From NCBI GenBank assembly GCA_035530335.1, contig DATKUZ010000028.1, forward strand, positions 61,842-125,841: a stretch of 64,000 nucleotides of DNA. The letters run 5' to 3'. This DNA is from Sulfuriferula sp. (lineage in GTDB: Bacteria > Pseudomonadota > Gammaproteobacteria > Burkholderiales > Sulfuriferulaceae). How positions within the stretch are numbered: the first letter of the stretch is position 1; each line of letters begins with the position of its first letter. Under the pieces are notes generated by a model. That model was not told the origin of the DNA, did not search any database, and saw nothing but the letters and a program-made list of their open reading frames with translations. Made by a program: the position numbers and the translations under genes. This document shows positions 9,271 through 64,000 of this stretch, one piece after another.

Positions 9271-9275
9271 GTATG

Positions 9276-13831: not shown

Positions 13832-13835
13832 TTGC

Positions 13836-44339: not shown

Positions 44340-44360
44340 CGATTAATCTGGAGGCGTACC

Positions 44361-47229: not shown

Positions 47230-47394
47230 GTCTGTGGCAGTAGTCCCGAACTTTGCCCCCCCGGCGTGACAGAGACCGTGTGGTGTCGCCAACAGCGAGA
47301 TCAGGCCTAACGACAGGTTGTGAATCGTTGGTAGCGCGCATTGCCGCTGGACAAATGTTCATTTCCATCATCACCTCATACTACGGAGATTAAA

Positions 47395-47970
47395 ATGTCA
47401 CAGAAAACAGCTCTTACCGACATTGCCACCCTGCGCAAACGCGCACGCCAGCATATTGAAGAAGGTGCAGTAACCGCTGGTTATGATGCGGATCGCACAA
47501 TGGTACTCAAATTGCTGAATGACTCGCTCGCCACCGAAATAATTTGTGTTCTGCGTTATCGGCGTCATCACTTCATGGCAAAAGGAATTCAGTCAAAAAG
47601 CATTGCTGATGAATTTCTGGTTCACTCTAACGAGGAACAGAATCATGCCGACCTGATAGCCGAGCGCATCGTGCAACTCGGTGGAGCGCCCGACTTCTCG
47701 CCAGACGGAATGACCGGACGCAGCCACTCGGAATATGTAGAAGCTATATCACTGGTGGATATGATCAAGGAAAACGTAGTGGCTGAACGCATTGCCATTG
47801 ATACTTACCGCGAGATTATCCAGTACATCGGCGATAAGGATCCCACTACCCGCCGCATGCTGGAAGGCATACTCGCCATGGAAGAAGAGCATGCAGATGA
47901 AATGGCCGATTTACTGGTAAATTTTGCCGCGGAAAACCGCTCTAAAACACCGCCTGCCAAAAAGCATTGA
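47395..47970 (+). CDS. Ferritin-like / bacterioferritin-family protein
   Basis: LNDSLATE..C.LRY..H, EEQNHAD..AERI.QLGG.P, AERIAI..YRE, EEEHAD (diiron ExxH pairs). RBS GGAG. Confidence 0.85.
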   Translation: MSQKTALTDIATLRKRARQHIEEGAVTAGYDADRTMVLKLLNDSLATEIICVLRYRRHHFMAKGIQSKSIADEFLVHSNEEQNHADLIAERIVQLGGAPDFSPDGMTGRSHSEYVEAISLVDMIKENVVAERIAIDTYREIIQYIGDKDPTTRRMLEGILAMEEEHADEMADLLVNFAAENRSKTPPAKKH

Positions 47971-47982
47971 TGATCAGGTGTA

Positions 47983-48025
47983 TGTACGACAGCGTACAGA
48001 CGGTTTTTGTCATGCTTAATAAACT
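47983..48025 (+). promoter_or_regulatory. Palindrome TGTACG-ACAG-CGTACA plus -10 TAAACT (copy C)
   Basis: Dyad at 47983-47998, then 21 nt to TAAACT at 48020. Confidence 0.7.
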
Positions 48026-48099
48026 GGTTACAAGCTTGCAAATCTCTGCTTCCGGAGTTCAGGCTTTTTAATCAGCACTTAACATTCAGGAGATTAATC

Positions 48100-48266
48100 A
48101 TGACCAAGAAAATCCTATCCGCATTAGTGCATTAGTAATGGCAGGCACCCTGGGCATGTTGCTCAGCGTCAGCGCCTGCAACACCGTGGCTGGCGCAGGC
48201 AAGGACGTCGAACAAGCAGGGGATGCGATTCACGACAAAGCCAGAGATGTGCAGCAAGAAAACTAA
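48100..48266 (+). pseudogene. Entericidin-family lipoprotein frameshifted by an 8-bp tandem duplication
   Basis: GCATTAGT occurs twice at 48121-48136. Removing one copy restores the 52-aa MTKKILSALVMAGTLGMLLSVSACNTVAGAGKDVEQAGDAIHDKARDVQQEN. Confidence 0.8.
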
Positions 48267-48289
48267 AATGCAATTTTGGTAAGTAAGCG

Positions 48290-48318
48290 AAAAGGGCTTC
48301 TACCAGGAGCTCTTTTTT
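48290..48318 (+). terminator. Intrinsic terminator
   Basis: AAGGGCTTC-tacca-GGAGCTCTT stem with G-U pairs, followed by a T run. Confidence 0.65.
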
Positions 48319-48473
48319 GCTATGCACAAACAATTAATTTTTTAATAACACGCATCGAATTGCCATAAACCATGGCCTATTCAATCCACATCAAAGCAAG
48401 CCGGCTGTTAATCAATAAATAACCAGCCGGATCATAACAAAGACATTTATGTCGTCTCCCGGATAACGCGACC

Positions 48474-49658
48474 ATGGAAACAGCACCTCAGTCCGAATCG
48501 GCAAAAACTGCAAATAACACGATCAGCGCTTCCGATACCGATAACCTGACGCTGCCACCCACGCATGAGACGGTGGAAGCGCACAGCACGGCGCTTGCCA
48601 TCCTCGCTGTCATCGCCCTGATATTCGTCCTCGATTGGGCGCAGATCTTTGTCATTTCCTTGCTGCTCGGCATTTTGTTCGCTTACACACTGAATCCGTT
48701 GGTGGCATGGCTGGAATTCATCAAGATACCGCGTGTGATTGGCGCCAGCATGGTAATGCTGGCCGTGGTGAGCATGGTATTGCTGAGTACCTACGCCTTG
48801 CGCGGACAAATGCAAACCATAGTCGATCAGTTGCCCAAGGCCGCCAGCAAGCTCTCGTCCGCAGCCATTCATTGGCGGCACGGCCAGCTTGGCAACATGC
48901 AAAAAGTACAAATCGCCGCAAACGAAATTGAAAAAGCGACCAATCAGGTTGCCGCTACATCAGCGCCCAACAAACGCGCGACTACCTACGTGGTCGTTGA
49001 GCCGCCTGCATTCAAGCTCAATACCTTATTGTGGACGGGGTCGACAGGTGTGCTGGCGTTTATCGGACAAGCCATCATGGTGGCTTTCCTTACCTATTTC
49101 CTGCTGCTGTCGGGTGATACCTTCAAGCGCAAGCTGGTGCGACTGGCCGGGCCGACGCTGACCAGAAAGAAAATTACAGTCCATATTCTGGATGACATTA
49201 ACAACTCCATCCAGAATTACATGTTCATGCTGTTGATCACCAATGCCCTGGTGGGCGTGCTGACCTGGGCGGCTTTCACCTGGCTGGGCCTGGAAAATGC
49301 GGGCGCCTGGGCGGTAGCGGCGAGCCTGTTACACATCATTCCGTATTTCGGCCCCGCCATTACTGCCGGCGTGACCGGAATGGCGGCGTTCATTCAATTC
49401 GATTCAATTTCATCTGCACTACAGGTGGCAGGTGCATCATTGCTGATAGCCACGATCATCGGTACCCTGGTCACCACCTGGATGACGGGTAGATTTGCGA
49501 AAATGAATACTGCGGCCGTATTTATTTCCCTGCTGTTCTGGACCTGGCTGTGGGGTATATGGGGCATGCTGCTCAGCATACCCATCATCGTCATCGTGCG
49601 GGTTGTGTCCCAACACATCGAGCAATTGCATCCTGTTGCAGAATTGCTGGGCGACTAG
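48474..49658 (+). CDS. AI-2E family transporter
   Basis: AY.LNP.V.WL, YFLL..GD.FKRK, IPYFGP, LLFW.WLWG..GMLLS.P. Confidence 0.88.
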   Translation: METAPQSESAKTANNTISASDTDNLTLPPTHETVEAHSTALAILAVIALIFVLDWAQIFVISLLLGILFAYTLNPLVAWLEFIKIPRVIGASMVMLAVVSMVLLSTYALRGQMQTIVDQLPKAASKLSSAAIHWRHGQLGNMQKVQIAANEIEKATNQVAATSAPNKRATTYVVVEPPAFKLNTLLWTGSTGVLAFIGQAIMVAFLTYFLLLSGDTFKRKLVRLAGPTLTRKKITVHILDDINNSIQNYMFMLLITNALVGVLTWAAFTWLGLENAGAWAVAASLLHIIPYFGPAITAGVTGMAAFIQFDSISSALQVAGASLLIATIIGTLVTTWMTGRFAKMNTAAVFISLLFWTWLWGIWGMLLSIPIIVIVRVVSQHIEQLHPVAELLGD

Positions 49659-49714: not shown

Positions 49715-50737
49715 CTATGCTTCCCCGTACCCCTGTGGATTCTGTGACTGCCAGCGCCAGGCATCTGCACACATGACGTGCACGTCCCGCTGCGCGCGCC
49801 AGCCGAACAGACCCTCCGCGAGCGTGGGATCGGCATAGCAACTGGCAATGTCCCCTGCCCTTCGCTCTACAATCTGGTAGGGTATTTCACGTCCGCTTGC
49901 CTGGGCAAAAGCCTGTACCATTTCCAGCACGCTGTAGCCGCGGCCGGTTCCCAGATTTACCGTTGCCAGACCGTCGTGACTTTCCAGATAACGCAGTGCC
50001 GCCACATGGCCCTGAGCCAAATCCACCACGTGAATGTAGTCCCGCACGCCGGTGCCGTCCGGCGTCGGATAGTCGCCGCCGAAAGCCCTTAAAAAAGGCA
50101 GCCGGCCCACCGCCACCTGGGCAATGTATGGCATCAGATTATTGGGTATGCCATTCGGGTCTTCACCAATCAGACCACTCTCATGCGCACCTACCGGGTT
50201 GAAATAACGCAGCAGGGCGATGCGCCAGGACGGGTCGGCGCGATACAGGTCGCGCAGGATTTCTTCGACCATGAACTTGCTGCGGCCATAGGGATTGGTG
50301 GTGGCACCTACCGGGAAATCCTCATGAATCGGCACTGTATGAGGGTCGCCGTATACCGTCGCTGAGGAACTGAACACGATGCGCTTGACACCTGCCTCGG
50401 CCATAACCTGGCACAAGGTGAGTGTGCCCGCCACGTTGTTTTCATAGTAACGCAAGGGCTGTTCTACCGACTCGCCCACCGCCTTGAGCCCGGCAAAGTG
50501 GATCACCGACTGAATTGAGTGCTGCGCGAAAACTGTCGCCAAGGCCTCGCGATCGCGTACATCCACTTGGTAGAAAATCGGCTTTTTGCCGGTAATATCC
50601 TCCACCCGTTTCAGCGCGGTTAACCTGCTGTTGCTCAGATTATCGACCACCACCACCTCGAATCCTGCGTTGAGCATCTCCACGCAGGTATGGGAACCAA
50701 TGTAGCCAGCCCCGCCGGTAATCAGAATTGTTGTCAT
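49715..50737 (-). CDS. galE: UDP-glucose 4-epimerase
   Basis: [68 protein letters not shown]. Confidence 0.97.
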
Positions 50738-50800
50738 CTTGTTTTCTCTATTGATATAAAAGGTAATCGCGCGCTGGCTTCTACTGCCGGAACACTCGTT

Positions 50801-53800
50801 TCAATGTTTATCCGGCACCCGGACTGCAATGAGTCGATCCACATATACATATTTCACATATTTTGCACTCGGTGCCTGGACATAGATGCCTTTGCCCTGG
50901 TCTGTATCGTAACGGAACGGGCCGCCCGGAACCTTGATCAGATGGTACTGGCCATCATTCAAATTGCCTATCAATCCCGGATTGAACAAACCCATCGGCG
51001 GGGAATATCCGACTTTTGCACCCACATCCTTGTCATGATTTGCAGCAGCGTCAGTGCGGATACTCGCATAAAGCTCCCATTGACCCTCCTTGGGCAGCTT
51101 ATCCAGCTTGAACTGCACCGCCCAGGTGGAGGAGTCGCCTTTCATCCTGGCTGCGGCGCCATCGGACGCCGCCTTATCCTGAACGATTTGCGCCGATTCA
51201 TAGCGATTGAAACTCAAATCCTGAAAATCCCTCCAGTCCGATCCGGGCAAATCGCGCACCATCGCAGGAACCGCCGGTGTGTGCCGCTCGACTGCCAGCA
51301 ATTCCTCCAGTTCCTGGATATTCCCCCCCTGACGGTACTGCGTCACTTTCGCCGTGCGCAGCGTCTGCTTGAAACGCGCCAGGCGCTGCGCGGTGCCCGG
51401 CTGCCAGTCGAGGTCACGGCGGGCGGCCTCGTCCGCATACTCTTTACGTCGTACCAGAATGACGTAATCCACAGGCATGCGCGCTTCTTTCACGTGCTCC
51501 AGCAACACCGGGTTGTTTGCCACTGCCGCCTGCGCTTGCTCGAACAACTGGTCTGCAGCACGCACGAAGTCCAGATTCAGCATGGCCAGATCGACCTGGG
51601 TTTTCTCGCCAAGCATGTCGCCGCTCCTGGCAATCGCCGCGTGCATCAGATCGATGTACTGGAGCACGTAGGGGCTGGCCGCACCGAAATAATACCGGCA
51701 ATATTCGGCGACCAGCGCCCTGACGTCCTGCTTCGGGTTCCACAACAGCCGCGCGATCATCCACGCACGCAAGCTGGCAAACTCGGCAGCCGGCGTATCC
51801 CAGCTGCCTTCGGCAAAATAACCATGCACATTCGGCAGCGTAGCCAGCCATTGCAGGCTATGGCCGATCGGATAAATGTTGGGCGTGGGCTGAAGGAAGC
51901 CGCTGAAGTTGGTAATGTGATCCCATACCAGGATGTGTTTCGCGATGGCATTCCAGCCTGCGATGTCCTGGCCCAGTTTCTTGTTTCTCCCCTGGTTCAG
52001 CGGTGAGCTGTAATCCACCTGTATCGTCATCGGAAATACCAGCACATAGTCGGGCACCGTCATGCCCTTGGGTGGCGTAAAACTCCAGTGATAGGCGTTG
52101 AAAGCCAGACGTGCGCCGGGTAGAACCTTGCGCACGCGGTTGGCGATATCGATCACCATGTCCAGCCGGGGTGCGGATGGCTCGCCGCCATGCTTGTCGG
52201 CAAAGGCTTTGCTGGCCGGATCCATATCCCAGCCCCAGTCCATGTCGTGAAGATCGAACCAGACTTTTCTGTAGTCCGGCAGCTGCTTCAATCGGTTGAT
52301 GATGGCCTCGGCCATGACCTGGCGCACTTGCGGATTCATCATCGCCACCTGGCCACCGGCATACCAGTCAGGATGTGCCTTGGCATATTTATCCTGCGGC
52401 ATCAGCTCCCAGAAAGTGGCTTCTCCGCCTTTCGCCCCCCAGCTGTGATTCCAGCTGTCGATTTCCGGTGGCGACGCGCTGAACGACGGCCCGTGCGATT
52501 CGCCGTTGAGCAGATTATGGGCGCGATAAGGCTTGTCCTGCCCTTCATAGCTGAGCACTTCCCGATAGCCGAAGCGCGGCACCTGCAGCTCATCCAGACG
52601 CGCAACCTGCAGCTTACTTTCCTCCGGCACATAAGTGTAGGAAGGGCTAAGCCACTTGACCCCGAGCTTGCGATCCAGAAACCAGTTGACGCCATACATG
52701 GTGCCGCGCGGTGTGGCGCCGGCTATCACCAGATGCGGCCCCACGGTGCGGATGACGAAGCCGTCCTCGCCCAACTTGTCATAGGGAATGTCCGGGCACA
52801 ACCGTTGCGTCAGGGCATTGTCACGCCCGACCACCAGCAGCGGGCCGGTCTGCGGATTGTCATCGGAGGAAAATGACGCAAAGCTGGCACCGCTGATCTG
52901 CTTCAGATAATCGGCAAGCGTGGCGGCTGCACCCAGGGTGATGGCATCGGCATTTCGAGCCACATGGATGTGATAACGCGCGTGACCGTTATCCGCCAGA
53001 ACCAAGGTGCCGGGAGACTTGCCAGCGCCCGCGGCAATCGCGGCAGCGATGGTTTTTTCGACGTTGCCGGTTTTTACCGCCGGTGCAAACATGGCCGCCG
53101 CCATCTCCGTCTGCTTCAAGATAGCCGCCGTAGTGACCGGATCGTCTGTCGGGCTCACCGCAACCGCATCAAAGTCGGCCGCACCAGGCGTAGCTGCCTT
53201 CTTGCGCAGATAAAGCAACAGCTCGTTGGCGCCGGGCGGCGCTTTTACCACCACCGAATACGATTTCCATGCATGCGTCCCGCCGGTCACAAACAGTGCC
53301 GGCTCGGCCCCCGAAGCCAGCTTGACTTGCTGCGGCCCTCGCCACCCGGCATCGACTCCGCTGCCGCGAAAACTCAACTGGACAAATACCGAGCCGTCGG
53401 CCGCATCCTTGGAGCGGATCTGCATGCTCACCCGATAGTGCTTGCCGCCCACCACAGGCCGCTTGTCCTGGGCGGCAAATCCCCCGGTGATTCTCAGGGC
53501 CGACCGGCCTTCAGCTGCACTACCCTTGATGATGCCCCCATCACCCCACCAGGGCGCCTTGCCTGTTTCAAACCCGCCGTTCCGGATAATCCGGATCGGC
53601 GCAAGGGTTCCCGCCGTCAGCCGTTCGATGGACAGGTCATCGAAATAGGCCGTTCCCCGGGGTTCAGGCTGGGCGTCATGACGCAGGTAAATCTGCAACG
53701 CTCTGGCAGCGGGCGGAATCTGCGTGGCGGGAATCACTGCCGAATATTCCTTCCAGCCTGATGTCCCCCCAACCGACAGCAACGCCGGTGATTTACCACC

Positions 53801-54205
53801 ATCCAGCACGAAAGCCGGCGCCGCACCTTCCAGCCAGCCACCGACAACCGGGCCGAACGTCCCGCTCGCGGCATTGGAGCCCTCCCCCCGTAGCAGCGCG
53901 CTCACTGCCACATCACGGGCATTACAGGCATCGCACTTGACCCAGAGATGGATTCGATAATCAAAACCCGGCTTGATCGGTACCATGCCCGCGGGCGCCT
54001 GATAGGCAAAACCGGATGCGAGCGCCAGCGATCTCGTGCCCCCATGCCGCTCGCCATCCACGATGCTTCCGCCCACCCAGACGCTTTTTCCATCCTCGAA
54101 TCCGCCATCGGCGACAGGCACAGGCTCGCCTTGAATAGCCATTGCCCGCGCGCAGAAAAGCAGCGCAAACAATCCCATCGCAAACAAACAGAACAGCCGG
54201 CTCAT
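50801..54205 (-). CDS. Large secreted multidomain protein: two CBM-like domains, a GH67/GH20-N-like domain, a DUF4838-like barrel and a C-terminal beta domain
   Basis: Signal peptide MSRLFCLFAMGLFALLFCARAMA; two (D/N)GGFE...(Y/A)FD repeats; EDGFVIRT..LVIAG..RGTMYGV; PRFGYRE...W.IARLLWNP...YYFG. An alternative start at 54235 is possible. Confidence 0.7.
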   Translation of the reverse strand: MSRLFCLFAMGLFALLFCARAMAIQGEPVPVADGGFEDGKSVWVGGSIVDGERHGGTRSLALASGFAYQAPAGMVPIKPGFDYRIHLWVKCDACNARDVAVSALLRGEGSNAASGTFGPVVGGWLEGAAPAFVLDGGKSPALLSVGGTSGWKEYSAVIPATQIPPAARALQIYLRHDAQPEPRGTAYFDDLSIERLTAGTLAPIRIIRNGGFETGKAPWWGDGGIIKGSAAEGRSALRITGGFAAQDKRPVVGGKHYRVSMQIRSKDAADGSVFVQLSFRGSGVDAGWRGPQQVKLASGAEPALFVTGGTHAWKSYSVVVKAPPGANELLLYLRKKAATPGAADFDAVAVSPTDDPVTTAAILKQTEMAAAMFAPAVKTGNVEKTIAAAIAAGAGKSPGTLVLADNGHARYHIHVARNADAITLGAAATLADYLKQISGASFASFSSDDNPQTGPLLVVGRDNALTQRLCPDIPYDKLGEDGFVIRTVGPHLVIAGATPRGTMYGVNWFLDRKLGVKWLSPSYTYVPEESKLQVARLDELQVPRFGYREVLSYEGQDKPYRAHNLLNGESHGPSFSASPPEIDSWNHSWGAKGGEATFWELMPQDKYAKAHPDWYAGGQVAMMNPQVRQVMAEAIINRLKQLPDYRKVWFDLHDMDWGWDMDPASKAFADKHGGEPSAPRLDMVIDIANRVRKVLPGARLAFNAYHWSFTPPKGMTVPDYVLVFPMTIQVDYSSPLNQGRNKKLGQDIAGWNAIAKHILVWDHITNFSGFLQPTPNIYPIGHSLQWLATLPNVHGYFAEGSWDTPAAEFASLRAWMIARLLWNPKQDVRALVAEYCRYYFGAASPYVLQYIDLMHAAIARSGDMLGEKTQVDLAMLNLDFVRAADQLFEQAQAAVANNPVLLEHVKEARMPVDYVILVRRKEYADEAARRDLDWQPGTAQRLARFKQTLRTAKVTQYRQGGNIQELEELLAVERHTPAVPAMVRDLPGSDWRDFQDLSFNRYESAQIVQDKAASDGAAARMKGDSSTWAVQFKLDKLPKEGQWELYASIRTDAAANHDKDVGAKVGYSPPMGLFNPGLIGNLNDGQYHLIKVPGGPFRYDTDQGKGIYVQAPSAKYVKYVYVDRLIAVRVPDKH

Positions 54206-54258
54206 GTTCTGCGCTGCAGAATTACATGCGCTCATACAGGGCTCTCCACCACACATGC

Positions 54259-55092
54259 TCAGCGCCAAAGCCCGGGAATTCCCGGTTGGCGGAACAGCGG
54301 CACGCGAAATTTCTTCCTGAACCGCATCAAACTTTGCAGGTGCAGACGGCCGGCCCAGCTGAATGGCCCGGCCGCACTGGTTCGCTGATGATCGTGCACC
54401 AGCCGCACACCCGGGACGCATACTACGCGGAAACCGGCCTGCCAAACCCTGGCACACAGGTCAACATCCTCCATATACAGGAAATAGGCTTCATCCATGC
54501 CGCCAATGCTGTTAAACAACGCGCGCCGGACGATAAAACCTGTCCCCATTACCCATTCGGCGTCGAACGGCTGATCGGCGTCCCACGCCGACAGCATCAT
54601 GTGCCGGTCAATACGCGGCTTGAATGGCCAGTATCGCCCGATCGGCAGCCTGCGCCCGACAACATCCAGCAGGCTGTAGAAGCGCCTTGCAGAAAATTGC
54701 CGTGCACCCCCGGGATAAACCAGGTCGAGGCCGACAATCCCGACATCGGGTTCACGCTCAAACAGCCGGATTGCCTGCTGAATGCTGAGATCTTCAAAGT
54801 ATGTGTCCGGGTTCAATACCAGGATGAACTCGCGATCACAGGCCGCTGCGCCAAGATTCACGCCGGCGCCGAACCCGCTATTGGTTGCCGAGCGCACCAG
54901 GCGGACGCCTTGCAGCAATTCCCGACTGAGGCGCTCGAAGGAGTCGTCCGGCGAGGCATTTTCCACCACCACGATATCTTGCGGAGCAGCGATACCCAGA
55001 CGCACGATCGACTCTACACACTTCAATGTGAGATCAGGTGTGCGGAAATTGACGACGACCGGATTAATAGCGCCCAATAAGCTGGTTGACAT
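54259..55092 (-). CDS. GT2 glycosyltransferase (WbbL/rhamnosyltransferase-like)
   Basis: VVVNFRT, VVENAS.D, N.GFGAG.N.G, LNPDT, DE.YFLYMEDVDLC.R. Confidence 0.88.
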   Translation of the reverse strand: MSTSLLGAINPVVVNFRTPDLTLKCVESIVRLGIAAPQDIVVVENASPDDSFERLSRELLQGVRLVRSATNSGFGAGVNLGAAACDREFILVLNPDTYFEDLSIQQAIRLFEREPDVGIVGLDLVYPGGARQFSARRFYSLLDVVGRRLPIGRYWPFKPRIDRHMMLSAWDADQPFDAEWVMGTGFIVRRALFNSIGGMDEAYFLYMEDVDLCARVWQAGFRVVCVPGVRLVHDHQRTSAAGPFSWAGRLHLQSLMRFRKKFRVPLFRQPGIPGLWR

Positions 55093-55163
55093 TGCAATTC
55101 TCCTTCAAACCAATGCGCTGTCGCTGTCTGCAACGCGCCGAGAGCTTTCCCTGGCGACGGCTA

Positions 55164-55922
55164 TCATTTCCATGCGCAAACGACTTTCGAGGGGATGTGT
55201 TGCGCATCTGCAAGAAAAACATCCATTAGTTCAACCTTCCTGAAACCGGCTGTTTTAACCCGCCCTGCAATATCCCTTGAAGAATGACGCCAAAACACCG
55301 GCACTGATTTTGCGCCAGCCAGCCGGCTATCGTGGTATTCGGGAATGCCGGTAAAAACGATATTGCCATTATCGAGAAAGGCGATTCTTTCAGTGCAATC
55401 GGTATCGTAGAGGGGCACGCTGAAAATAAGTGCGCCACCCTTGCGCAGTACCCGGAAACATTCGGCATATCCCCGGATATCGTCCGGCACATGCTCAAAA
55501 ACCTGATTCGAGGTGACCAGATCAAAACTCTCATTATCAAAGGTTAGCTGCTGGACGTCCTGATTCAGGACGCCATCAATAACGCTGCCTGGCTTTTCTT
55601 CCGGGAAAAATTCGCTGTCAACGACTGTGGGCCAATTGGCTTTTAACCAGGCAAGCGTGCATCCATAGCTGGAAAGCTCGTATGCAGACTTTCCCGTATA
55701 GGGTTCCTTGAAATAATTTTTAATGGCTGCGACCAGCGAGAGATTGGTGATGTTCGTCCTGCATTTCAGGCATCTTGTCATGAAGGGGTCTTTCCTGAAT
55801 GACAGGAAAAAGCTTTTATTGCAAAGCGGACACTCGCCTTTCGAGACCCTCCATTTATACGGGGTGTCTGCCCAGCCCAGATAGCGTATTGCCGAGCTTA
55901 GTCTTGGCGAAATCATGCTCAT
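55164..55922 (-). CDS. Class I SAM-dependent methyltransferase with N-terminal CxxC pairs
   Basis: CPLC...CLKC, QDVQQLTF...SFDLV.SNQVFEHVPD....AECFRVLR.GG.LIFSVP. Confidence 0.75.
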   Translation of the reverse strand: MSMISPRLSSAIRYLGWADTPYKWRVSKGECPLCNKSFFLSFRKDPFMTRCLKCRTNITNLSLVAAIKNYFKEPYTGKSAYELSSYGCTLAWLKANWPTVVDSEFFPEEKPGSVIDGVLNQDVQQLTFDNESFDLVTSNQVFEHVPDDIRGYAECFRVLRKGGALIFSVPLYDTDCTERIAFLDNGNIVFTGIPEYHDSRLAGAKSVPVFWRHSSRDIAGRVKTAGFRKVELMDVFLADAQHIPSKVVCAWK

Positions 55923-55929
55923 GCGAACC

Positions 55930-56970
55930 TCACGCCGACTCATATACATGTTCGACAATACCCCAGAGCTCTTGTGCCGAACGATCCCAGTCGAAACGCG
56001 CCACTTGTTCCCTCCCCCTGGCCACCAGTTCGCTGCAGAACCCATCATCGCAGGCCAGACGGTTCAGCCCTTTGGCAATGTCTTTTATCGAATACGGATC
56101 GACAATCAAGGCGGCATTTCCCGCCACTTCCGGCATGGCCGAAACGTTCGACGTCACCACCGGCACCCCCGAGGCCATTGCCTCCACGATCGGCAACCCG
56201 AAGCCCTCGTATAGCGAAACGAAAGCTACGAACAGCGCGCCTTTATACAGCTTCGGCAAGTCCTCGTCATTGACCCGCCCCAGAAAATGCAGCCTGGATT
56301 CCACCCCCGCGCGCCTGGCGTGTCCGACCAGTGCCTGATTGACATTGCCGGTCATCGCCAGATGAATATCCCGTTGCGGCAACGCAGAAGCTGCGTAGGC
56401 CGAGATCAGACGCTGCAGATTTTTGTAACTGCGATGATTGCCCGGATACAGAACATAGCGATACGGCATCTTGGCCGATTCCTGGTTTTCCAGATAAATG
56501 CTGTCCACGCTGTTATAAACAACAGACACTTTGTTCGGGGGCATACCGGACCATTCAAGAAACTCGCGACGCGTGTAATCGGAAACGCAAACGATGGCGC
56601 TGCACAGCCGATACAGGGGCTTGAGATAGTGGTTGTAATACGCTGCATGGAAACGGCTATAGAAACGCAAGTGGGTCAGGTCATGCACAGTCACCACACT
56701 GGGAATGTCCATCACTGCCGGCGGTACAAATCCCGCACTCCAGTACACGCCATCGCGATCCGTCGCCGAACGCCGCAAGGCGCGGCTTATCGCAAACGGC
56801 GAAAACGGGCTGCCGATACTTCCCTTCACCTCAAGACCTACCAGATTCATGCGCGACGGTTTACGTTCCACCATGGCGGCCATGACATTGCCAATCCCGG
56901 TCTTCAGGGGCCAGCGCATGTCTGAATAAACGCTTAGACGATGCTCGTTATATAAACTCGCCTTCATCAT
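55930..56970 (-). CDS. Glycosyltransferase family 4
   Basis: [49 protein letters not shown]. Confidence 0.9.
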   Translation of the reverse strand: MMKASLYNEHRLSVYSDMRWPLKTGIGNVMAAMVERKPSRMNLVGLEVKGSIGSPFSPFAISRALRRSATDRDGVYWSAGFVPPAVMDIPSVVTVHDLTHLRFYSRFHAAYYNHYLKPLYRLCSAIVCVSDYTRREFLEWSGMPPNKVSVVYNSVDSIYLENQESAKMPYRYVLYPGNHRSYKNLQRLISAYAASALPQRDIHLAMTGNVNQALVGHARRAGVESRLHFLGRVNDEDLPKLYKGALFVAFVSLYEGFGLPIVEAMASGVPVVTSNVSAMPEVAGNAALIVDPYSIKDIAKGLNRLACDDGFCSELVARGREQVARFDWDRSAQELWGIVEHVYESA

Positions 56971-56977
56971 TCCGCCC

Positions 56978-57814
56978 TCAGTCGATCCAGCCGAGAAAAC
57001 GCTGGGAGGCAGCAATCCAGTAATACCTGGCGCGCTTGTAATCCAGCCTGAGCAGGGACAGCATGCCTCCTGCCATCGACCTGAAGATCAGATACAAGAC
57101 AAAATACGCCGGATAGCTCGACAACCCCAGAACACGGCCGAACCCGCGGTTATACAGGCGCGCCCGTGAAAACGCCTTGTCGTCCATCACCGTCAGCGGC
57201 TCGGGATGGAATATCCGCAGGTCCGGGTCATAACGCACATACATGGACGCCTGAATGACACGCAGCAGAAAATTCACTTCCTCGCCCGCTCCCCAGCGCG
57301 TACCGGAACCCACTCCCAGCGCTTCATTGAACTGCCCGGCGCGAATAACCGCCTCGGTGCGCAGGAAAATGGTGTAAGACGTGGCGCAAGTCCAGACGTT
57401 GTATCTGTCGACCGTCAATCTCTGATCCGACCAGCGCCCTTGTGACGCGATGCCATTTCCGTCCACGCTGCGCCCGGTCAAACCCTGCAGGCGCGGATCG
57501 GCCTGGAATTGTTTGACCACAAACTCCAGCACGTCCGGACGGTACCAGCAGTCATCGTCCGGAAAGGCAACCAGGTCGCCGTGAATGTGTTTCAGGCCAA
57601 CATTCCTTGCACGCGACAGGCCTTTTTCCGAACGCAGATAAACAAACTCAAGACGGTCGCGAAACTCATCCACCAGCTTCACCACGCGGTCATCCTCGTT
57701 CTGATCCACCACGATCACTTCAAAGTGCTTGTATGTCTGGTTCGCGAGCGAGTTGAACAGGCGTTCAATTTCCACGCTGCGTCCCAGCGTTGCCATCACC
57801 AGAGAGAATTTCAT
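56978..57814 (-). CDS. Glycosyltransferase family 2
   Basis: FSLVMAT.GR, VIVVDQN, GLS.ARN.GL, AFPDDDC (DXD), GAGEE. Confidence 0.88.
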   Translation of the reverse strand: MKFSLVMATLGRSVEIERLFNSLANQTYKHFEVIVVDQNEDDRVVKLVDEFRDRLEFVYLRSEKGLSRARNVGLKHIHGDLVAFPDDDCWYRPDVLEFVVKQFQADPRLQGLTGRSVDGNGIASQGRWSDQRLTVDRYNVWTCATSYTIFLRTEAVIRAGQFNEALGVGSGTRWGAGEEVNFLLRVIQASMYVRYDPDLRIFHPEPLTVMDDKAFSRARLYNRGFGRVLGLSSYPAYFVLYLIFRSMAGGMLSLLRLDYKRARYYWIAASQRFLGWID

Positions 57815-58836
57815 GACCTTGCTCCACCATCGGCGACCGAATCGACGATGTTCCACAATTGCGCCGCGGATTTTTTCCAGTCGAATTGGAGGACACGCTC
57901 GGCACCGCACGCGATCAGTTGGTGACGCGCAGCTTCGTCCAGCGCCAGGGTATTGAGCCCTTTGGTAATTTCTTCTATCGAATAGGGATCGACGAGCAGT
58001 GCCGCATCGCCGGCGATTTCAGGCATCGAGGAGACGTTGGAGGTCATTACCGGCACCCCCGATGCCATGGCTTCGACAATAGGCAGACCAAAGCCCTCAT
58101 ACAGCGAGATATAAGCTACAGCCAACGCCCCCCGGTAGAGTTTCGGCAGGTCGGGGACATCCAGCCATCCGCAAAAATGTACCCGATCCGCAATTCCCAA
58201 CTCCGCCGCTTGGGATTGCAAGCCGGCGTGGAGCTCTCCAGTCAATACGAGATGAATGTCATGCTGTGGCAGCCGCGAGCGGGCATACGCCTCCAGCAGA
58301 CGCGCCAGGTTCTTGTAGGGGCGATGATTGCCGGGATAGAGCACATAGGGGTAGGGCAGATCCAGTGTTTCAGTGTTGGCCGCGTAATCCGGGCAGACGC
58401 CGTTCAGAACCACGTGCACCTTGTGCGGCGCCATTTTCGACCAGGACAGGAAAGTGGCGCGGGTGAACTCCGACACGCAGATGATCGCAGCGCAGCGCCG
58501 GTAAAGCGGCTTCAGGACGATATCGTAATAGGCGCGGTGCAGGCGGCTATAAAACAGACGATGCGTCAGATCGTGCACGGTGACGACCGAGGGTATGCGT
58601 GCCCACAAGGGGGGCAGGAAGCCAGGGTTCCAGAATACGCCGTCGCGCATGCGCTGCAGGGCGCGGGTCAATGTCAGCGGTGCCCCCGGGCTGCCGAGAC
58701 TGCCGCTCAGATGCAGATCGACCAGGCGGACATGCGGCGGCGCCGCGGCGCAGCACGCCGCCTGAACTTTGGCGATGCCGGTCATACGCGGCCAGCGCAA
58801 ATCGGCGTATACCGGGTAGAAGGCAGGTGCGGTCAT
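57811..58836 (-). CDS. Glycosyltransferase family 4 (paralog of 55930-56970)
   Basis: Shares [39 protein letters not shown] and [14 protein letters not shown]. Confidence 0.9.
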
Positions 58837-59069: not shown

Positions 59070-60206
59070 TCATTTGGCACGGGCCGCAGCCCGGCGCTGC
59101 AGGCCCCAGGACGCCAGAAAACCGGCAAACAGGTAAACAATCTCCGATTGATGCAATGGGTTCACCAACGACCAGGCCGCCACCGGGGCCAGCAGAAAAA
59201 CAGATGAAGTGCCGACGCCGGCAAAGAAAACAAACCAGAACGCCAGTCCGGCAAACCCGGCAATCACCATGAAATCGAGTGGCGAAGAGAAAATGGAATT
59301 CGTGCCCAAACCCAGGCCCATGACGGTGAACCACAGCTGCGAAAAGTATCCTTCGACAAAACCGAAACCGTATCCGGTCCAGTTTTCACCGATCAGTTTT
59401 ATGCTTTGTTCAAAAGCGAGTCCGCGTTCATTCTGAAGCCGTACCTGCAACAGGTCTCCGGATAATTCCCAGCCGAAATGCTGCATGTAAAACGCTGAGC
59501 CTGCGGCAATCGCTAAAATCTTCAGCCAGAAATGCCCGCGATGGTGCAACATAAAAGCGATGCCGCAAGCAATCAACACTGTTTTCGATTCGCTAAGCAG
59601 GGCAATCAATAGGCTGGCCCCGAAGAATTTCGCCAAAGAGGAAAAGCGGAAATCAGATCTCAAAAAAAGCAGATAAATAAGCAAGAAAAAGTAGATGGCA
59701 AACCAGTTTCTTTCTTTGAAAGTGCCATGGATGGCGTTTTGCATGAAACCCACAGCCTGGTAAACCACCGGCACCCGATAAAACTGGAGAAGAAATTGGA
59801 CGGCAATAAATACGAATATGAAAACATAGCCGTAGGGCAGTTTTTGGTTGAAATATTTTACCCCGTACATTCTTCCGATCAGATAGAACGCCGGGTACAC
59901 CGCGACAAACTTTATTATCTGTTCCAATGCCTTGATGCGAAAATATTGAGCCAATAAGGTGTCCACCAGCGCGATGGCGATAAAAAACAGATAGGCGCCT
60001 ATTTCCAGTCCGCTGACCCGAAAAGACCGGGTGTAAACCATCACCCCGATCACCAGTATTGCCCATAGATGGGCCGGTTGCGCCATGCCGACCTGAATGA
60101 ACTGCAACGGCAGCAGTAGCAGGCCTGCGATAAATAGCCGCCCTAGCCACACATCCGTAGCTGTCTCTTTCGTCAGTGCGAAAACAGGAATCGCTGGAGC
60201 ATTCAT
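59070..60206 (-). CDS. Wzy-like polysaccharide polymerase (polytopic membrane protein)
   Basis: About 10 hydrophobic segments, GTF.ERN.F..Y, LSESKT, ER..AF, GYG.G. Lies within the GT cluster. Confidence 0.6.
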   Translation of the reverse strand: MNAPAIPVFALTKETATDVWLGRLFIAGLLLLPLQFIQVGMAQPAHLWAILVIGVMVYTRSFRVSGLEIGAYLFFIAIALVDTLLAQYFRIKALEQIIKFVAVYPAFYLIGRMYGVKYFNQKLPYGYVFIFVFIAVQFLLQFYRVPVVYQAVGFMQNAIHGTFKERNWFAIYFFLLIYLLFLRSDFRFSSLAKFFGASLLIALLSESKTVLIACGIAFMLHHRGHFWLKILAIAAGSAFYMQHFGWELSGDLLQVRLQNERGLAFEQSIKLIGENWTGYGFGFVEGYFSQLWFTVMGLGLGTNSIFSSPLDFMVIAGFAGLAFWFVFFAGVGTSSVFLLAPVAAWSLVNPLHQSEIVYLFAGFLASWGLQRRAAARAK

Positions 60207-60254: not shown

Positions 60255-61157
60255 CTATCTCCCTAACGTGGACTCTTTAAAGCGCTTGATTGCACGGATT
60301 GAATTCAGTGCTTTTATCCCCAACCTGCCGATTTGGCCATTATGCAAAAGCGCCTCGAATGAATCGTTGGGCAAGGTGGCCGAAGGCGCCACTGAAACCC
60401 CGATGCCCGAGAAGAGATGCCCCAGATAACTGCCTTCGCAAGGGAGGATATTCTTGGGGATGCGCCACCTGCGCAGAAATTCGTTCCACAAATGCACACA
60501 AACGGCTTCCTCGGCGGCTTCCACACAGCCAGCCAATTCCTGGGGACGAAAGAACCTGGCAACCTCCAGATAATGGATCGGATAAAAATACTCCTGTGGA
60601 AGCACAGTCACCAATTCCGGAAATTCCAGAATAAATTGCGTCACCAGCTGCGGGCCGATCGCACCCCATGCGTCCAGAACCTTCCCTTTCAAATTCGCTC
60701 GCCGCTCCAGCTCTTTTGCCAGGTCGGGATTCGATACATAAAAAACTGCGCCATTGACTTTCCCTGGCTCTTCAAACCCCAGCAGGATGCCTTTTGATCG
60801 GGACTGGAGTTCGACATAGAAGCTTGCGTCTTTCAGGCAAAACACATCCGTATCAAACCACCAGCCTGGCTCCCGGGACAGCACCCGATAGCGGAAAATA
60901 TCGGTGAAGGCAGCCACCGAATTCTTGTGCCCGCCTTGCGTGTATGCGAAAACCTCATCCACATCGGCAAGCTCGGACGCATCACACAGTTCCACGCCTT
61001 CCGGAACCCGCAGCTCCTTGTTGAAGGTATGCAGCAGTACCCGGCAATTGTGGTTTACAAAAGAAGACAGGCAGGCCATCTCATACAGACTGAGCGCCGG
61101 GCCGTGCCAGAAAAAATTCGCGTTGATCACAGTATCTGTTTCCTTATCTAACATCAC
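60255..61157 (-). CDS. DXD-motif glycosyltransferase (GT32/Gly_transf_sug-like)
   Basis: FFWHG..LS.YE.ACL.SF, AAFTDIFRY..L...PGWWFDTDV.CL, WG.IGP.L.T, FYPIHY, VHLWNE. Confidence 0.7.
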   Translation of the reverse strand: MMLDKETDTVINANFFWHGPALSLYEMACLSSFVNHNCRVLLHTFNKELRVPEGVELCDASELADVDEVFAYTQGGHKNSVAAFTDIFRYRVLSREPGWWFDTDVFCLKDASFYVELQSRSKGILLGFEEPGKVNGAVFYVSNPDLAKELERRANLKGKVLDAWGAIGPQLVTQFILEFPELVTVLPQEYFYPIHYLEVARFFRPQELAGCVEAAEEAVCVHLWNEFLRRWRIPKNILPCEGSYLGHLFSGIGVSVAPSATLPNDSFEALLHNGQIGRLGIKALNSIRAIKRFKESTLGR

Positions 61158-62261
61158 TCACACCGACTGTGCCAGGGCCGCCACCCGCGCTGCCACGATG
61201 TCCCAGGACAATGCCTCCACCGCCCGCGCCCGTGCGCGTTGCGCCATCTCAAGGCAGGCCGCGTAATGTTCGGCACACCACACCAGCCGTTCAGCCGCAT
61301 GCTCGCCGCCCGTAGCGGTCAGGAATGTGCCATTTCCCTCCTCCACGTAGTCGCACACCCCGCCTACCTTCGATACCAGGAGCGGCAGCCCGGAGGACAT
61401 TGCTTCCAGTACCGAATTATTGGCCGTGGCATCGATCAACGGCAGAAACATCACTTGCGCGCTTCGATATCGCATGCGCAATTCAGCGTCCGACAAACCG
61501 GCGTGCCAATGCACATTGCTGTGTTGTGCCAGCCGGTAATGCTGCTCGAAGTTACGCGCAAATTTCGGCACGACAAGATGAAACTCGAAGCGCTGCGGCG
61601 CGTATTCCAGCAGTGCCAAAGTGTCGGTCAGTTGCCTGAAATCGCGCAGCCATTGGCCGCAGAACAGCACCTCGATCGGTCCGTCATCCGGCAGCGAGCG
61701 CAACGCTTCGCCGGGCGAGAAAAAATCCACATCCACGCCATGCGGCACGAAATGCACATTGGCGTGCCCTGTCTGCCCCTGCAGGAAACGCTGTGCCTGC
61801 CGCGACAACGCAATGACCAGATCCACTCCGGAAAATACCTTGCCATCCACCCCGTACATGCGCCACCACGCCGGCGGCTGATGCGATACGCCGGCTATCC
61901 TGATGCCGGGCATGCGCCCGTCTGCATGCGCAAAAGCATCGAAGTGATCCTCCAGCGCCTCGAAAAACACCATGTCAAAATGCTGCGCCCGCAACATGCG
62001 CAGCGCAGCTGTCTCCAGCAGTAGCCCGTTACGGTTATAGAAAGGGCTCCAGCCCTGCTTCTTCGGCACTCCCAACAGGCGCTCGCGCAACATCCCCCAA
62101 ACCAGCCGCGCGCCAACCCGAAGTTTGTCGCCTAGCGACGGCACCACGCGCTGTACTTCAAAGTGCTTGTTCAGTTGTTCGCCCAGAGGCGCCAGACCGC
62201 TATGACCGCCCAGATGATCCCAGCGCGCGCTTACCAGCAATAATTTTTGTCGTATGGTCAT
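61158..62261 (-). CDS. Glycosyltransferase family 4
   Basis: PHGVD.DFF.P, LFCGQWLRDF, DATANNSVLEAMSSGLP..VS.VGG. Confidence 0.85.
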   Translation of the reverse strand: MTIRQKLLLVSARWDHLGGHSGLAPLGEQLNKHFEVQRVVPSLGDKLRVGARLVWGMLRERLLGVPKKQGWSPFYNRNGLLLETAALRMLRAQHFDMVFFEALEDHFDAFAHADGRMPGIRIAGVSHQPPAWWRMYGVDGKVFSGVDLVIALSRQAQRFLQGQTGHANVHFVPHGVDVDFFSPGEALRSLPDDGPIEVLFCGQWLRDFRQLTDTLALLEYAPQRFEFHLVVPKFARNFEQHYRLAQHSNVHWHAGLSDAELRMRYRSAQVMFLPLIDATANNSVLEAMSSGLPLLVSKVGGVCDYVEEGNGTFLTATGGEHAAERLVWCAEHYAACLEMAQRARARAVEALSWDIVAARVAALAQSV

Positions 62262-62953
62262 TGAGCTGATGACTCCTGAATCAAAACTGCTGCAACAGCG
62301 CAGCCCGATCCGGTTGTATCCGTCCCTACATCATTGGCGCCAACCACGCCGGTATTCGTATTTGGCGGCGCTGTACCGCCCACATAAATGAACCCCGGCG
62401 CGGCGACCTTGGCACCCGTCGCCAGACTGCGATGCACTACCGCGTTGGCTCCCACTTTGACCCCGTCACCCAGCGTAATGCGGCCGAACAATTTGCATCC
62501 GGCGCCGAGATATATATTGTCGCCGAGCACCGGCACGCCGCGTTTATCCCCGGATCCGCCAACCCCGATAGTGACGCCTTGCGAAATAAAACAGTTGCGC
62601 CCGATGACCGCCTTTGGACTGACAAAAATGCCGCTGAAGTGGCCGATATACAGCCCCGGTCCAATACGCGCGCTGCGCGGAATATCGATCCCCCAGAGTA
62701 TCTTGATGAGCTCGTTGAGCAACATATACACCGGAGCCAGCAACCAGTTAAGCGGAGCCCGCTGACGTGCCGCCCACTGACCAAATCGCAATACCGTCAC
62801 CGCGTGTATGCCGGGTGCGCGCAGGCAATCAAACATGCGCCGTGCCCGTGAGCCTTCGCACAGGCGATAAAATTGCGCCCAGTCGGCCCGCAGTGGCAGG
62901 CCGTATTTATCGGTGTGGCGTACAGCCAATATCTCATCTGGTCTCGTTGTCAT
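62258..62953 (-). CDS. CysE/WcaB-like hexapeptide O-acetyltransferase
   Basis: GIDIP..A.IG.GLYIGH..GI, IG.NC.I.QGVTIG, P.LGDN.Y.GAG.K..G.I..GD...VGANAVV. Confidence 0.85.
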   Translation of the reverse strand: MTTRPDEILAVRHTDKYGLPLRADWAQFYRLCEGSRARRMFDCLRAPGIHAVTVLRFGQWAARQRAPLNWLLAPVYMLLNELIKILWGIDIPRSARIGPGLYIGHFSGIFVSPKAVIGRNCFISQGVTIGVGGSGDKRGVPVLGDNIYLGAGCKLFGRITLGDGVKVGANAVVHRSLATGAKVAAPGFIYVGGTAPPNTNTGVVGANDVGTDTTGSGCAVAAVLIQESSAQ

Positions 62954-63999
62954 ACGCGGGCGGCTTTCCGGGTTGTTGGCGACGCTGGCGATCGCAATAC
63001 GTCAGCAAGGTTGGCAAGTTGCGTGGCGTTCCACGCACGGGCGGCGGCAAGTGCTTCGCGTACCAGTCTGGAACGCAGCTCCGGATCGCGCAGCATCCGC
63101 ACTACCCCCGCAGCCATGGCCGCTGCGTCGTCATCCGCCACAGTCAAAAAGGCACGCCCGCGCAGATTTTCCAGTCCGCGGCTGCCCGATTCGGTTACCA
63201 CCAGCGGCACGCCCAGGGCCAGACATTCCATGGTTTTAATATTCAAGCCCGTGCCCATACGTACCGGGTTCACCGCCAACGCTCCCTGCGCATAGGTCTG
63301 CGCTACTGAGTCCACCCGTCCCAACTTGTGTACTCCGGGCGCGTCAAGCGCATCCTGACAGACGTCACCCGCGAGCCAGAACTCAAAACCAGGCATGTCT
63401 GCGCGAATCAAAGGCAATACGCCGGTAATGAAGGCATTGGCAGCATCCACATTGATGCTGTTAGCCGAAGCGACAAAGATCGCCCGCTGTACATTCGCCA
63501 ACAAAACAGACTGCGACATATCCAGCAAATGACCCACCGTCGTCACTCGCGCACGTCCATGCAACGCCGCCGCAAACAAGCGCGCTTCACTGTCCTGTAT
63601 TGCCACCACCACGTCCGCACGCGCCAGGCCTTTGCGTTCGCCCGCTTGCGTGGTGGCAAACCACTCCGGCTGCTTGCCTGCCCGCAGGTAGTGCAGATGG
63701 CGATCGGCAAAGCGGTCATGGGTATCGATGACTTTCACCACTTTTGCTGGGAAAGCTTCCAATGCCTTGGACATGAAAACATATTCCACAAATACCGCCT
63801 CAAACCCGTATTGCGCCTGCAGTGCCTTCAGTTGATCCGTCAATCCCCGGTCGTACCAATCATCCACACTCCACACATGCGCCGACGCCTGCCCCATCCG
63901 CCGCAGCACACTGCGTCGCAACCGTGCCGATACACTGCTGACAGCCTTCGGTACCTGATACTTCAATTCGGTGAATTGGCTATCGAAATGCTTCATCAT
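62950..63999 (-). CDS. Glycosyltransferase family 4-like (5' end may lie outside the window)
   Basis: VIDTHD, AD.VVAIQ..E, NP...GTGL.IK..E.LA.G.P.V.T..G..G. Confidence 0.75.
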   Translation of the reverse strand: MMKHFDSQFTELKYQVPKAVSSVSARLRRSVLRRMGQASAHVWSVDDWYDRGLTDQLKALQAQYGFEAVFVEYVFMSKALEAFPAKVVKVIDTHDRFADRHLHYLRAGKQPEWFATTQAGERKGLARADVVVAIQDSEARLFAAALHGRARVTTVGHLLDMSQSVLLANVQRAIFVASANSINVDAANAFITGVLPLIRADMPGFEFWLAGDVCQDALDAPGVHKLGRVDSVAQTYAQGALAVNPVRMGTGLNIKTMECLALGVPLVVTESGSRGLENLRGRAFLTVADDDAAAMAAGVVRMLRDPELRSRLVREALAAARAWNATQLANLADVLRSPASPTTRKAARV

Positions 64000-64000
64000 C

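Follow-up and report, generated by a model that had tools for sequence, protein, structure and literature searches.

By combining profile and structure searches, structure prediction and a comparison of homologous loci, our analysis points to an exopolysaccharide (EPS)-processing role for an exported protein of Sulfuriferula sp., encoded at 50801..54235 on the minus strand of a 64,000-nucleotide stretch of DNA (GenBank assembly GCA_035530335.1, contig DATKUZ010000028.1, positions 61,842 to 125,841 of the forward strand) that we refer to as the window. On balance, we favor the reading that this protein, which carries two carbohydrate-binding module (CBM)-like domains, a GH67N-like domain and a DUF4838 domain, is a dedicated glycoside hydrolase (GH) of the DUF4838 superfamily that acts on the polymer made by its own operon. 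Because the gene is co-inherited with the same putative polymerase and three glycosyltransferases (GTs), processing of that polymer is its most likely task. While the enzyme superfamily and two of its activities are known already, the comparisons reported here set the clade of this protein apart by an altered active-site signature and tie it to an undescribed EPS cassette. A preliminary description of this DNA had likewise proposed a glycanase acting on the polymer of the locus; its exported, multi-domain GH-fold protein within a Wzx/Wzy EPS operon stands, but the protein does not found a family with a new fold.

The open reading frame (ORF) runs from an ATG at 54205 to a stop at 50801 without internal stops, giving 1134 amino acids, and residues are numbered throughout from this ATG. 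The true start is probably an in-frame ATG at 54235, because a GGAGAG Shine-Dalgarno sequence lies 8 nt upstream of it, no ribosome-binding site was found before the ATG at 54205, and the database copy P0001, which matches the window protein at 100%, has 1144 amino acids; this start would lengthen the signal peptide by 10 residues and leave the protein otherwise unchanged. The N-terminus forms a single hydrophobic segment with an A-M-A cleavage motif at its end (54137..54205, minus strand; residues 1-23, or 10 more from the upstream start), and a hydrophobic leader is found in all 33 aligned homologues. With this Sec-type signal peptide the protein is predicted to be exported, either to the periplasm or to the outside of the cell. 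The G+C content of the gene (window positions 51000-55000) is 0.59-0.61, compared with 0.50-0.56 on both sides.

In an AlphaFold2 model built from a 34-sequence alignment (mean predicted local distance difference test score, pLDDT, 91.1; pTM 0.82), the signal helix is followed by two β-sandwiches, a helical linker, an α/β domain, a barrel, a helical bundle and a further β-sandwich, all encoded on the minus strand. The first CBM-like β-sandwich (53615..54127; residues ~27-197) opens with GGFE and closes with YFDD, and the second (53147..53593; residues ~205-353) matches Pfam CBM_4_9 at residues 206-277 (E=1.6e-7). Since residues 24-200 and 201-356 share 34% identity (E=3e-19), the two modules are genuine internal repeats, as had been suspected from their jelly-roll-like sequence. 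The family profile matches the carbohydrate-binding modules 2zex/2zew in the PDB (E=5e-4), and Foldseek places the CBM22 tandem 4xup on the N-terminus. Both modules are present in Sulfuriferula and in homologues from the PVC (Planctomycetes-Verrucomicrobia-Chlamydiae) phyla; Caballeronia, Paraburkholderia and Agrobacterium have one, which corresponds to β-sandwich 2, and Burkholderia and Pleomorphomonas have none.

The α/β accessory domain is of the GH20b/GH67N/GH115-N type (52667..53008; residues ~400-513) and carries the signature DGFVIR...LVIAG...RGTMYGV. Pfam Glyco_hydro_67N matches residues 422-506 (E=3e-6) and the family profile matches the N-terminal domain of the GH115 enzyme 7pug (E=1e-6), with the GH20b model scoring 18 bits on the same stretch, below its cut-off of 26.1. 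The (β/α)8 barrel (51626..52657; residues ~517-860), assigned from Pfam and from DSSP analysis of the model, has predicted strands at 547-551, 595-597, 649-653, 699-704, 721-726, 757-763 and 793-799. Behind it lie a helical bundle (51293..51574; residues ~878-971), with the invariant R974 just beyond, and a C-terminal β-jelly-roll (50819..51253; residues ~985-1129) that contains the invariant D1010 and R1050. Modelled alone, the C-terminal 185 residues form a generic jelly-roll (pLDDT 93.6) with weak Foldseek matches to Cry-toxin domain III, to CBM22, CBM4 and CBM35, and to the C-terminal domain of GH115. The architecture read from the letters alone, of about 1,134 residues with a signal peptide, tandem jelly-rolls, a GH20/GH67-type accessory domain and a barrel-like region, is thus borne out in each of its parts.

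The barrel is a full-length DUF4838 domain, PF16126 matching residues 518-852 over profile positions 1-325 of 325 with 187.1 bits (cut-off 26.6, E=6e-55), so that both the profile score and the coverage place the protein in the family. Comparison with diverse DUF4838 proteins by hhalign gives a probability of 100, and the family's fold arrangement of a barrel preceded by a GH20b/GH67N-like domain is seen by AlphaFold2, Foldseek and Pfam. Two CAZy families, GH163 and GH185, have PF16126 as their catalytic domain, and retaining glycosidase activity has been proven for DUF4838 members (Bains et al. 2023, PMC10570127). The GH163 founder, BT1035 of Bacteroides thetaiotaomicron, is a surface endo-β-N-acetylglucosaminidase that cleaves the GlcNAc-β1,2-Man linkage of complex N-glycans and so releases N-acetyllactosamine (LacNAc) units, and the GH185 founder, Sp_0475 of Streptococcus pneumoniae, is a cytoplasmic exo-acting 6-sulfo-β-GlcNAcase with a substrate-assisted retaining mechanism (PMC10570127). 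Q174, H227, D309 and Y436 are key residues of Sp_0475, and the single conserved acid D309 is its acid/base candidate; the H227 and Y436 mutants show 43-fold and 86-fold lower kcat/KM, respectively, and kcat of the Y436 mutant falls 400-fold (PMC10570127). The earlier statement that no assigned activity was known for DUF4838 is therefore outdated, and because GH163 and GH185 share this catalytic domain, the protein founds no family that would be new by fold or by Pfam; it belongs to a separate clade within one that is very large and already known. An exhaustive phmmer search with residues 395-1134 retrieved 8,905 representatives (50% clusters) at E<=1e-3, of which 1,500 reach E<=1e-30, with only about nine cluster representatives at least 50% identical to the window protein. 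Most DUF4838 proteins occur in glycan degraders, and the literature searched contained no report of DUF4838 in an exopolysaccharide context; NCBIfam offers no specific name for this protein or for the Wzy-like and GT32-like proteins of its operon.

The likeness to GH163 lies in a PF16126 domain preceded by a GH20b/GH67N-like domain, in export and in an additional carbohydrate-binding β-sandwich. With P0172, a Bacteroidota protein of DUF4838 plus F5/8-type-C architecture that served as proxy for BT1035, the window protein shares 31% identity over 536 residues (E=1e-73). It differs in lacking the F5/8-type-C domain (no PF00754 match) that follows DUF4838 in GH163 (PMC10570127), in carrying two N-terminal CBM4/9-like modules and another kind of C-terminal jelly-roll instead, in having no Cys-rich stretch after the catalytic Asp, and in being encoded by a biosynthetic EPS operon rather than a catabolic polysaccharide utilization locus. 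With GH185 it shares the DUF4838 barrel, a single invariant carboxylate (D309 there and D656 here, by position and spacing) and a region C-terminal to the barrel that may add residues to the site (R633 there; the invariant R974, D1010 and R1050 here). However, Sp_0475 is cytoplasmic and acts on small sulfated oligosaccharides, whereas the window protein is exported and CBM-bearing; the absence of a signal peptide that marks the GH185 group (sequence similarity network cluster 3, PMC10570127) contrasts with the leader present in all homologues here. Judged by spacing, the counterparts of H227 and Y436 would be Ala596 and His763.

Membership of GH20 receives no support, as PF00728 does not match at E<=0.1 and the H-x-G-G-D-E motif is missing, the strand end at D656 reading H-D-M-D with no conserved adjacent D-E pair. 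We also discounted the GH20-like 'HGGE' at residues 672-675 as a catalytic motif, since E675 is not conserved and the segment does not lie at a strand end. In structure, the closest matches in the PDB by Foldseek are GH115 α-glucuronidases (4c91, E=1.6e-21; also 7pxq, 5by3 and 4zmh among the best GH115/GH67 matches), followed by GH84 O-GlcNAcases, GH138, GH20 lacto-N-biosidase, GH89 and GH67, and no solved DUF4838 structure was among the matches. The GH115 and GH67 enzymes have the same order of α/β N-domain, barrel, helical bundle and C-terminal β-sandwich, but identity is only 10-13%, and no Pfam model for a GH115 or GH67 catalytic (middle or C-terminal) domain matches. GH115 and GH67 enzymes are inverting, with different catalytic residues. 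By PDB profile, the N-terminal accessory domain alone aligns with GH115, the remaining similarity being structural only; likewise, when the PDB was searched by sequence, neither the protein by itself nor its family profile matched more than this domain and the CBMs, and the barrel was left without a match, so that catalytic residues cannot be transferred from a solved structure.

Conservation around the barrel offers another route to the active site. R548, D656, Y705, W751 and W761 are invariant even against DUF4838 proteins of 24-30% identity, and D656 (codon 52238-52240, minus strand) is the only universally conserved carboxylate, which agrees with the single conserved acid D309 of Sp_0475. 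In the 34-sequence alignment, D656, D762, Y705, W751 and W761 are present in 34 of 34 sequences, D662, H571, N564 and N567 in at least 32, H763 in 30 and D654 in 26 (otherwise Gln). The motifs W-x-H-T-F, S-Q-N-D, A-Y-[EQ]-Y, W-D-Y and F-E-Q-G and a C-x-C-x-x-C stretch are found in canonical DUF4838 proteins, among them Bacteroidota members that combine DUF4838 with F5/8C as BT1035 does; the window clade has G-G-x-A-x-F (593-598), H-D-M-D-W-G-W-D-M-D (653-662), N-A-Y-H-W (703-707), W-D-H (761-763) and Y-F-A-E-G (796-800). At the strand ends, Ala596, Asp654, His706 and His763 thus stand where canonical members have His, Gln, Gln and Tyr, and these four residues together with E799 are the clade-specific ones of the barrel. 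A BLAST alignment sets the canonical His opposite H591 instead, which is likewise not conserved in the clade. In canonical proteins the His precedes the Asp by 65 residues and the Asp precedes the Tyr of W-D-Y by 104, and the corresponding distances in Sp_0475 are 82 and 127; this spacing suggests that H227 corresponds to the lost His and Y436 to His763.

Across the clade the residue switch is coupled. His763 and Glu799 are found in all 59 loci with at least 53% identity in the catalytic domain, and the signature A/G596, D/Q654, H706, H763, E799, with occasional substitutions at 596, 654 and 706, in 58 of them, the exception being a locus (L056) that ends before residue 656. Residue 596 is Ala in 49 and Gly in 6 of the 58 loci that cover it, Phe or Leu in the rest, and never His. 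More distant relatives, down to ~24% identity, have Tyr763 (with the sole exception of L081, the most divergent locus scored), in several cases His596 and, in the 31-46% identity band, mostly Gln654. EPS-linked and PVC loci show the same signature. The changed residues all lie at or just past the C-terminal ends of the predicted barrel strands, and it is at these ends that TIM-barrel glycosidases have their active site. Strict conservation of the changed strand-end positions within the clade argues that the pocket is functional but re-tooled.

The second line of evidence is the company that the gene keeps. A scan of one genome per species gave 110 relatives. When the window neighbors were run by tblastn against the loci retrieved, the Wzy-like protein, the two GT2 enzymes (GT2a and GT2b) and GT4 were all present beside the homologue in 28 loci of Proteobacteria, and a further 5 had part of the set. 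The 28 complete loci span alpha-, beta- and gammaproteobacteria and tie the DUF4838 gene to GT2-GT4-GT2 and a Wzy-like gene much more closely than the preliminary description could foresee. GT2a lies directly upstream on the same strand in 24 loci, and in alphaproteobacteria the gene order is rearranged with the genes still within 10 kb. The carriers are Sulfuriferula, beta- and gammaproteobacterial metagenome-assembled genomes, Caballeronia, Paraburkholderia, Agrobacterium/Rhizobium, Pararhizobium, Ciceribacter, Pleomorphomonas and, within Burkholderia, B. multivorans, B. seminalis, B. catarinensis and B. pyrrocinia; the closest named relatives, Sulfuriferula sp. GW1 and S. multivorans TTN, show 87% identity and full synteny.

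The cluster of B. pyrrocinia BX1 reads undecaprenyl-phosphate glucose phosphotransferase, tyrosine phosphatase, Wza, Wzc, flippase and a 'hypothetical' protein (the Wzy-like one), then GT2, GT1/4, GT2, DUF4838, GT4 and pyruvyl transferase, with the start and stop of the DUF4838 gene overlapping the flanking GT genes. Pfam confirmed the minimal cluster in B. multivorans. We rejected an equation of the Burkholderia version with the Bep cluster (BCAM1330-1341), which has three GT4s, a β-helix protein and ManC and neither GT2s nor DUF4838. Two hallmarks of an EPS-operon glycanase, co-inheritance from within a biosynthetic operon and export to the compartment of the polymer, here by a Sec-type signal peptide, are both found. 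EPS operons that encode hydrolases or lyases are documented (PMC4928890, PMC5933820, PMC8829089, PMC9075953), and PslG (GH39-like), PelA (GH166), BcsZ (GH8), the C-terminal domain of PgaB (GH153), AlgL (PL5) and ExoK (GH16) are likewise exported and operon-encoded. The window protein differs from these in its much larger size, its CBM-like modules, its DUF4838 fold and its Wzx/Wzy pathway.

The chemistry of the polymer can be glimpsed through hints only, namely galE and a GT2 with a galactosyltransferase-like segment adjoining the gene, pyruvyl and acyl transferases in the cluster, and a glucose-1-phosphate priming enzyme annotated in Burkholderia; in the window cluster and in L089, a contig with the same genes that reaches further upstream, no genes for amino-sugar synthesis, N-acetyltransferase or deacetylase were seen. 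We hypothesize that a polymer, probably galactose-containing, pyruvylated and acylated, is made by the Wzx/Wzy-dependent pathway with the Wzy-like membrane protein and the GT2, GT4 and GT2 as its conserved core. After Sec export of the enzyme, its CBM-like β-sandwiches would hold this polymer and its barrel would cleave glycosidic bonds in the pocket at the C-terminal strand ends, centred on Asp656 and also including Arg548, Tyr705, Trp751 and Trp761. Such cleavage could trim, release or clear the polymer, as PslG, PelA, BcsZ, AlgL, ExoK and PgaB do elsewhere, and in the PVC phyla the same activity may serve to degrade such a polymer as food. Judged from the residue signature, bond specificity, and possibly chemistry, probably differ from the substrate-assisted β-GlcNAcase reaction of the characterized members.

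Several observations weigh against this proposal. The equivalences with Sp_0475 and BT1035 were drawn from spacing and from proxy proteins rather than from the founder sequences, and the spacing equivalents of H227 and Y436 of Sp_0475 are not conserved in the clade, so that a loss of catalysis is conceivable. The identities of the DUF4838 protein and of the cassette GTs correlate with r up to 0.98, but this largely follows species phylogeny and is weak evidence, because shared phylogeny alone would yield it. Lastly, about one-third of the close homologues, the PVC copies, never adjoin GTs or cassette genes by tblastn. A lack of linkage between homologues and GT clusters had been named at the outset as a result that would speak against an EPS role; the linkage holds in Proteobacteria, in the 28 loci, and fails in this third.

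The PVC homologues, of ~50% identity and with CBM-like modules included, come from Verrucomicrobia, Lentisphaerae, Planctomycetes and Kiritimatiellia. Their neighbors encode a regulator of GntR/periplasmic-binding type, prepilin-like N_methyl proteins and a secreted protein of ~300 residues, and the loci look catabolic by gene content. Being regulator-linked and catabolic-looking, they support a real glycanase activity rather than refute it. For the small secreted partner (~300-337 residues), Pfam gives nothing even at E<=1. Its copies in 13 loci (L005:13930-14943(+), L002:839-1750(-), L017:13759-14727(+), L018:~13480-14445(+), L022:~8616-9593(+) and others) share 44-62% identity, whereas neither the window nor any proteobacterial locus has one; the glycan attacked by the DUF4838 homologue may also be the substrate of this protein, as a second enzyme. 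In five Verrucomicrobia loci, a Pfam-less protein of ~1,130 residues lies just upstream of the DUF4838 homologue and adjoins the prepilin-like N_methyl proteins (L002:5850-9239(+), with homologues in L022, L023, L028 and L030; 51-70% identity).

Among other explanations, the protein could be a conventional DUF4838 β-N-acetylhexosaminidase that cleaves β-HexNAc in its own polymer by the oxazoline retaining mechanism. Both characterized PF16126 members are β-GlcNAcases, D656 and Y705 are kept alongside the 31% identity to the BT1035-type protein, and galE enzymes of some bacteria also interconvert UDP-GlcNAc and UDP-GalNAc. We nevertheless consider this unlikely, since the canonical His of W-x-H-T-F has become Ala or Gly and the Tyr of W-D-Y has become His, the latter being the best positional match to Y436, whose mutation costs Sp_0475 so much of its kcat, and since the cluster shows no amino-sugar genes and the priming enzyme of B. 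pyrrocinia is annotated as a glucose phosphotransferase. The loss of two hallmark residues of the characterized relatives, together with up to three CBM-type β-sandwich modules, could instead mark a catalytically dead, non-hydrolytic polymer-binding protein that serves as scaffold, export chaperone or surface anchor of the EPS and retains its GH fold purely for binding. There is precedent for GH-like domains first called binding domains, such as the C-terminal domain of PgaB (PMC5933820), but that precedent proved to be an active hydrolase. Moreover, the pocket residues are conserved more strictly than the remaining protein, the replacements add ionizable groups (Asp654, His706, His763, Glu799) instead of removing them, Burkholderia versions without N-terminal CBMs retain the barrel, and the non-biosynthetic PVC loci keep the same signature, all of which makes a dead binder quite improbable to us.

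A nutrient-scavenging glycanase for foreign glycans, with an incidental position in the EPS operon, would fit the Verrucomicrobia, Lentisphaerae and Planctomycetes homologues found near sugar-responsive regulators and away from GTs, as well as the residence of most DUF4838 proteins in glycan degraders. It would hardly explain why the same four biosynthetic genes adjoin the homologue in 28 loci of three proteobacterial classes despite rearrangement, why start and stop codons overlap with those of GT genes, or why no transporter or catabolic gene occurs in the proteobacterial loci examined, and we regard it as very unlikely. Least probable of all, in our view, is a periplasmic transglycosylase or remodelling enzyme that moves sugar units on the nascent polymer: retaining DUF4838 enzymes such as Sp_0475 are capable of such transfer, but the PVC context favors degradation.

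If a hydrolase acting on its own operon's polymer is indeed what the gene encodes, the cassette leads both to an unknown exopolysaccharide and to an unknown glycosidase specificity. The protein is a good and tractable enzyme-discovery lead, as the cassette is present in culturable, tractable Burkholderia multivorans, B. pyrrocinia, Paraburkholderia, Caballeronia and Agrobacterium, which makes substrate production and gene deletion possible outside Sulfuriferula. A third DUF4838 activity with a different pocket would help annotate many genes of CAZyme type among the 8,905 representatives, and EPS-specific hydrolases are of practical use for dispersing biofilms, as PslG and PelA have shown. That the loci are biosynthetic in Proteobacteria but regulator-linked in the PVC phyla further suggests that bacteria which make a polymer and bacteria which feed on it are linked ecologically. 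A more far-reaching reading, which we put forward tentatively and with some doubt that it holds as a whole, joins a new GH specificity (possibly a new CAZy family or subfamily) with an unrecognized, widespread EPS and its PVC consumers. The clade may have left substrate-assisted β-HexNAc chemistry for an Asp/Glu/His pocket, and a five-gene cassette of Wzy-like protein, GT2, GT4, GT2 and glycanase might make this EPS and be common to sulfur oxidizers, the Burkholderia cepacia complex, Paraburkholderia, Caballeronia and agrobacteria; the PVC enzyme and its ~300-residue partner could then eat the polymer, forming a matched producer/degrader gene pair.

The genes around the DUF4838 gene, all on the minus strand, fit the operon that this proposal requires. 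Its placement between the last GT2 and galE, noted earlier from the letters, agrees with Pfam and TIGR01179: galE (UDP-glucose 4-epimerase; 49715..50737), the last gene of the operon, matches Pfam Epimerase and scores 460 bits with TIGR01179 (cut-off 262), and on the other side GT2a (54259..55092; Pfam and tblastn synteny) bears a Glyco_transf_7C-like segment. The DUF4838 gene begins 53 nt after GT2a (23 nt from the 54235 start) and ends 63 nt before galE, and no promoter- or terminator-like sites separating the three genes were seen. Next upstream is an S-adenosylmethionine (SAM)-dependent methyltransferase (55164..55922; Pfam Methyltransf_11, with a 252-residue orthologue in L001), whose longest ORF (to 56048) overlaps the GT4 gene. 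This insertion is strain-variable: the window shares it with Sulfuriferula sp. GW1, one Paraburkholderia has it at a different place in the locus, and neither S. multivorans nor any other cassette locus carries it here. The conserved cassette continues with GT4 'a' (55930..57015; Pfam Glycos_transf_1, 50-82% identity in cassette loci) and GT2b (56978..57910; Pfam Glycos_transf_2, 43-76% identity), the start of which is probably near 57814, its orthologue having 278 residues. GT4 'b' (57811..58836; Pfam) is paralogous to GT4 'a'; in many other loci a single GT4 occupies this place, and both window copies match one gene in the Burkholderia and Caballeronia loci.

The putative Wzy-type polymerase (59070..60206) is a polytopic membrane protein of 378 residues with ~9-10 hydrophobic segments. 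It matches no Pfam or NCBIfam model, including Wzy_C and the O-antigen ligase family, yet copies of 45-57% identity occur in every cassette locus, and because it is so conserved without a matching model it appears to represent an unmodelled polymerase family. The less conserved upstream part of the operon spans 60255..64000 and comprises, by Pfam, a GT32-like protein (Gb3_synth; 60255-61157), a GT4 (61158-62261), a hexapeptide O-acetyltransferase (62258-62953) and another GT4 that runs from 62950 past the window end. Beyond this point, L089 encodes two acyltransferases, a pyruvyl transferase, a Wzx flippase and a ParA-like kinase, and further upstream Wzz/GNVR, Wza and an outer-membrane barrel. 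These genes, together with the polytopic protein, agree with the Wzy-type polysaccharide operon first suggested for this DNA and support, at the level of gene content, a complete Wzx/Wzy-dependent EPS cluster. A literature search on Sulfuriferula EPS returned nothing relevant.

Sequencing runs added some minor observations. The window is fully contained in two soil-metagenome runs, and a related cultured organism (organism A; runs X12-X15, window 50626-58866) carries the cassette in two versions, one ~92% identical to the window and colinear with it, the other ~83% identical and without the methyltransferase, which suggests either two paralogous EPS loci or two strains. Runs labelled 'RNA?', those of organism A among them, were considered as evidence of expression and set aside, since their contigs of 100-180 kb and flat depth identify them as DNA. 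Downstream of the EPS operon, on the opposite strand (43692-45302 and 47341-49658), the window encodes di-heme cytochromes c with a SoxA/TsdA-type domain as well as a PLD-like protein, a ferritin-like protein and an AI-2E transporter, which are unrelated to the EPS operon and fit a sulfur-oxidizing, Sulfuriferula-like host.

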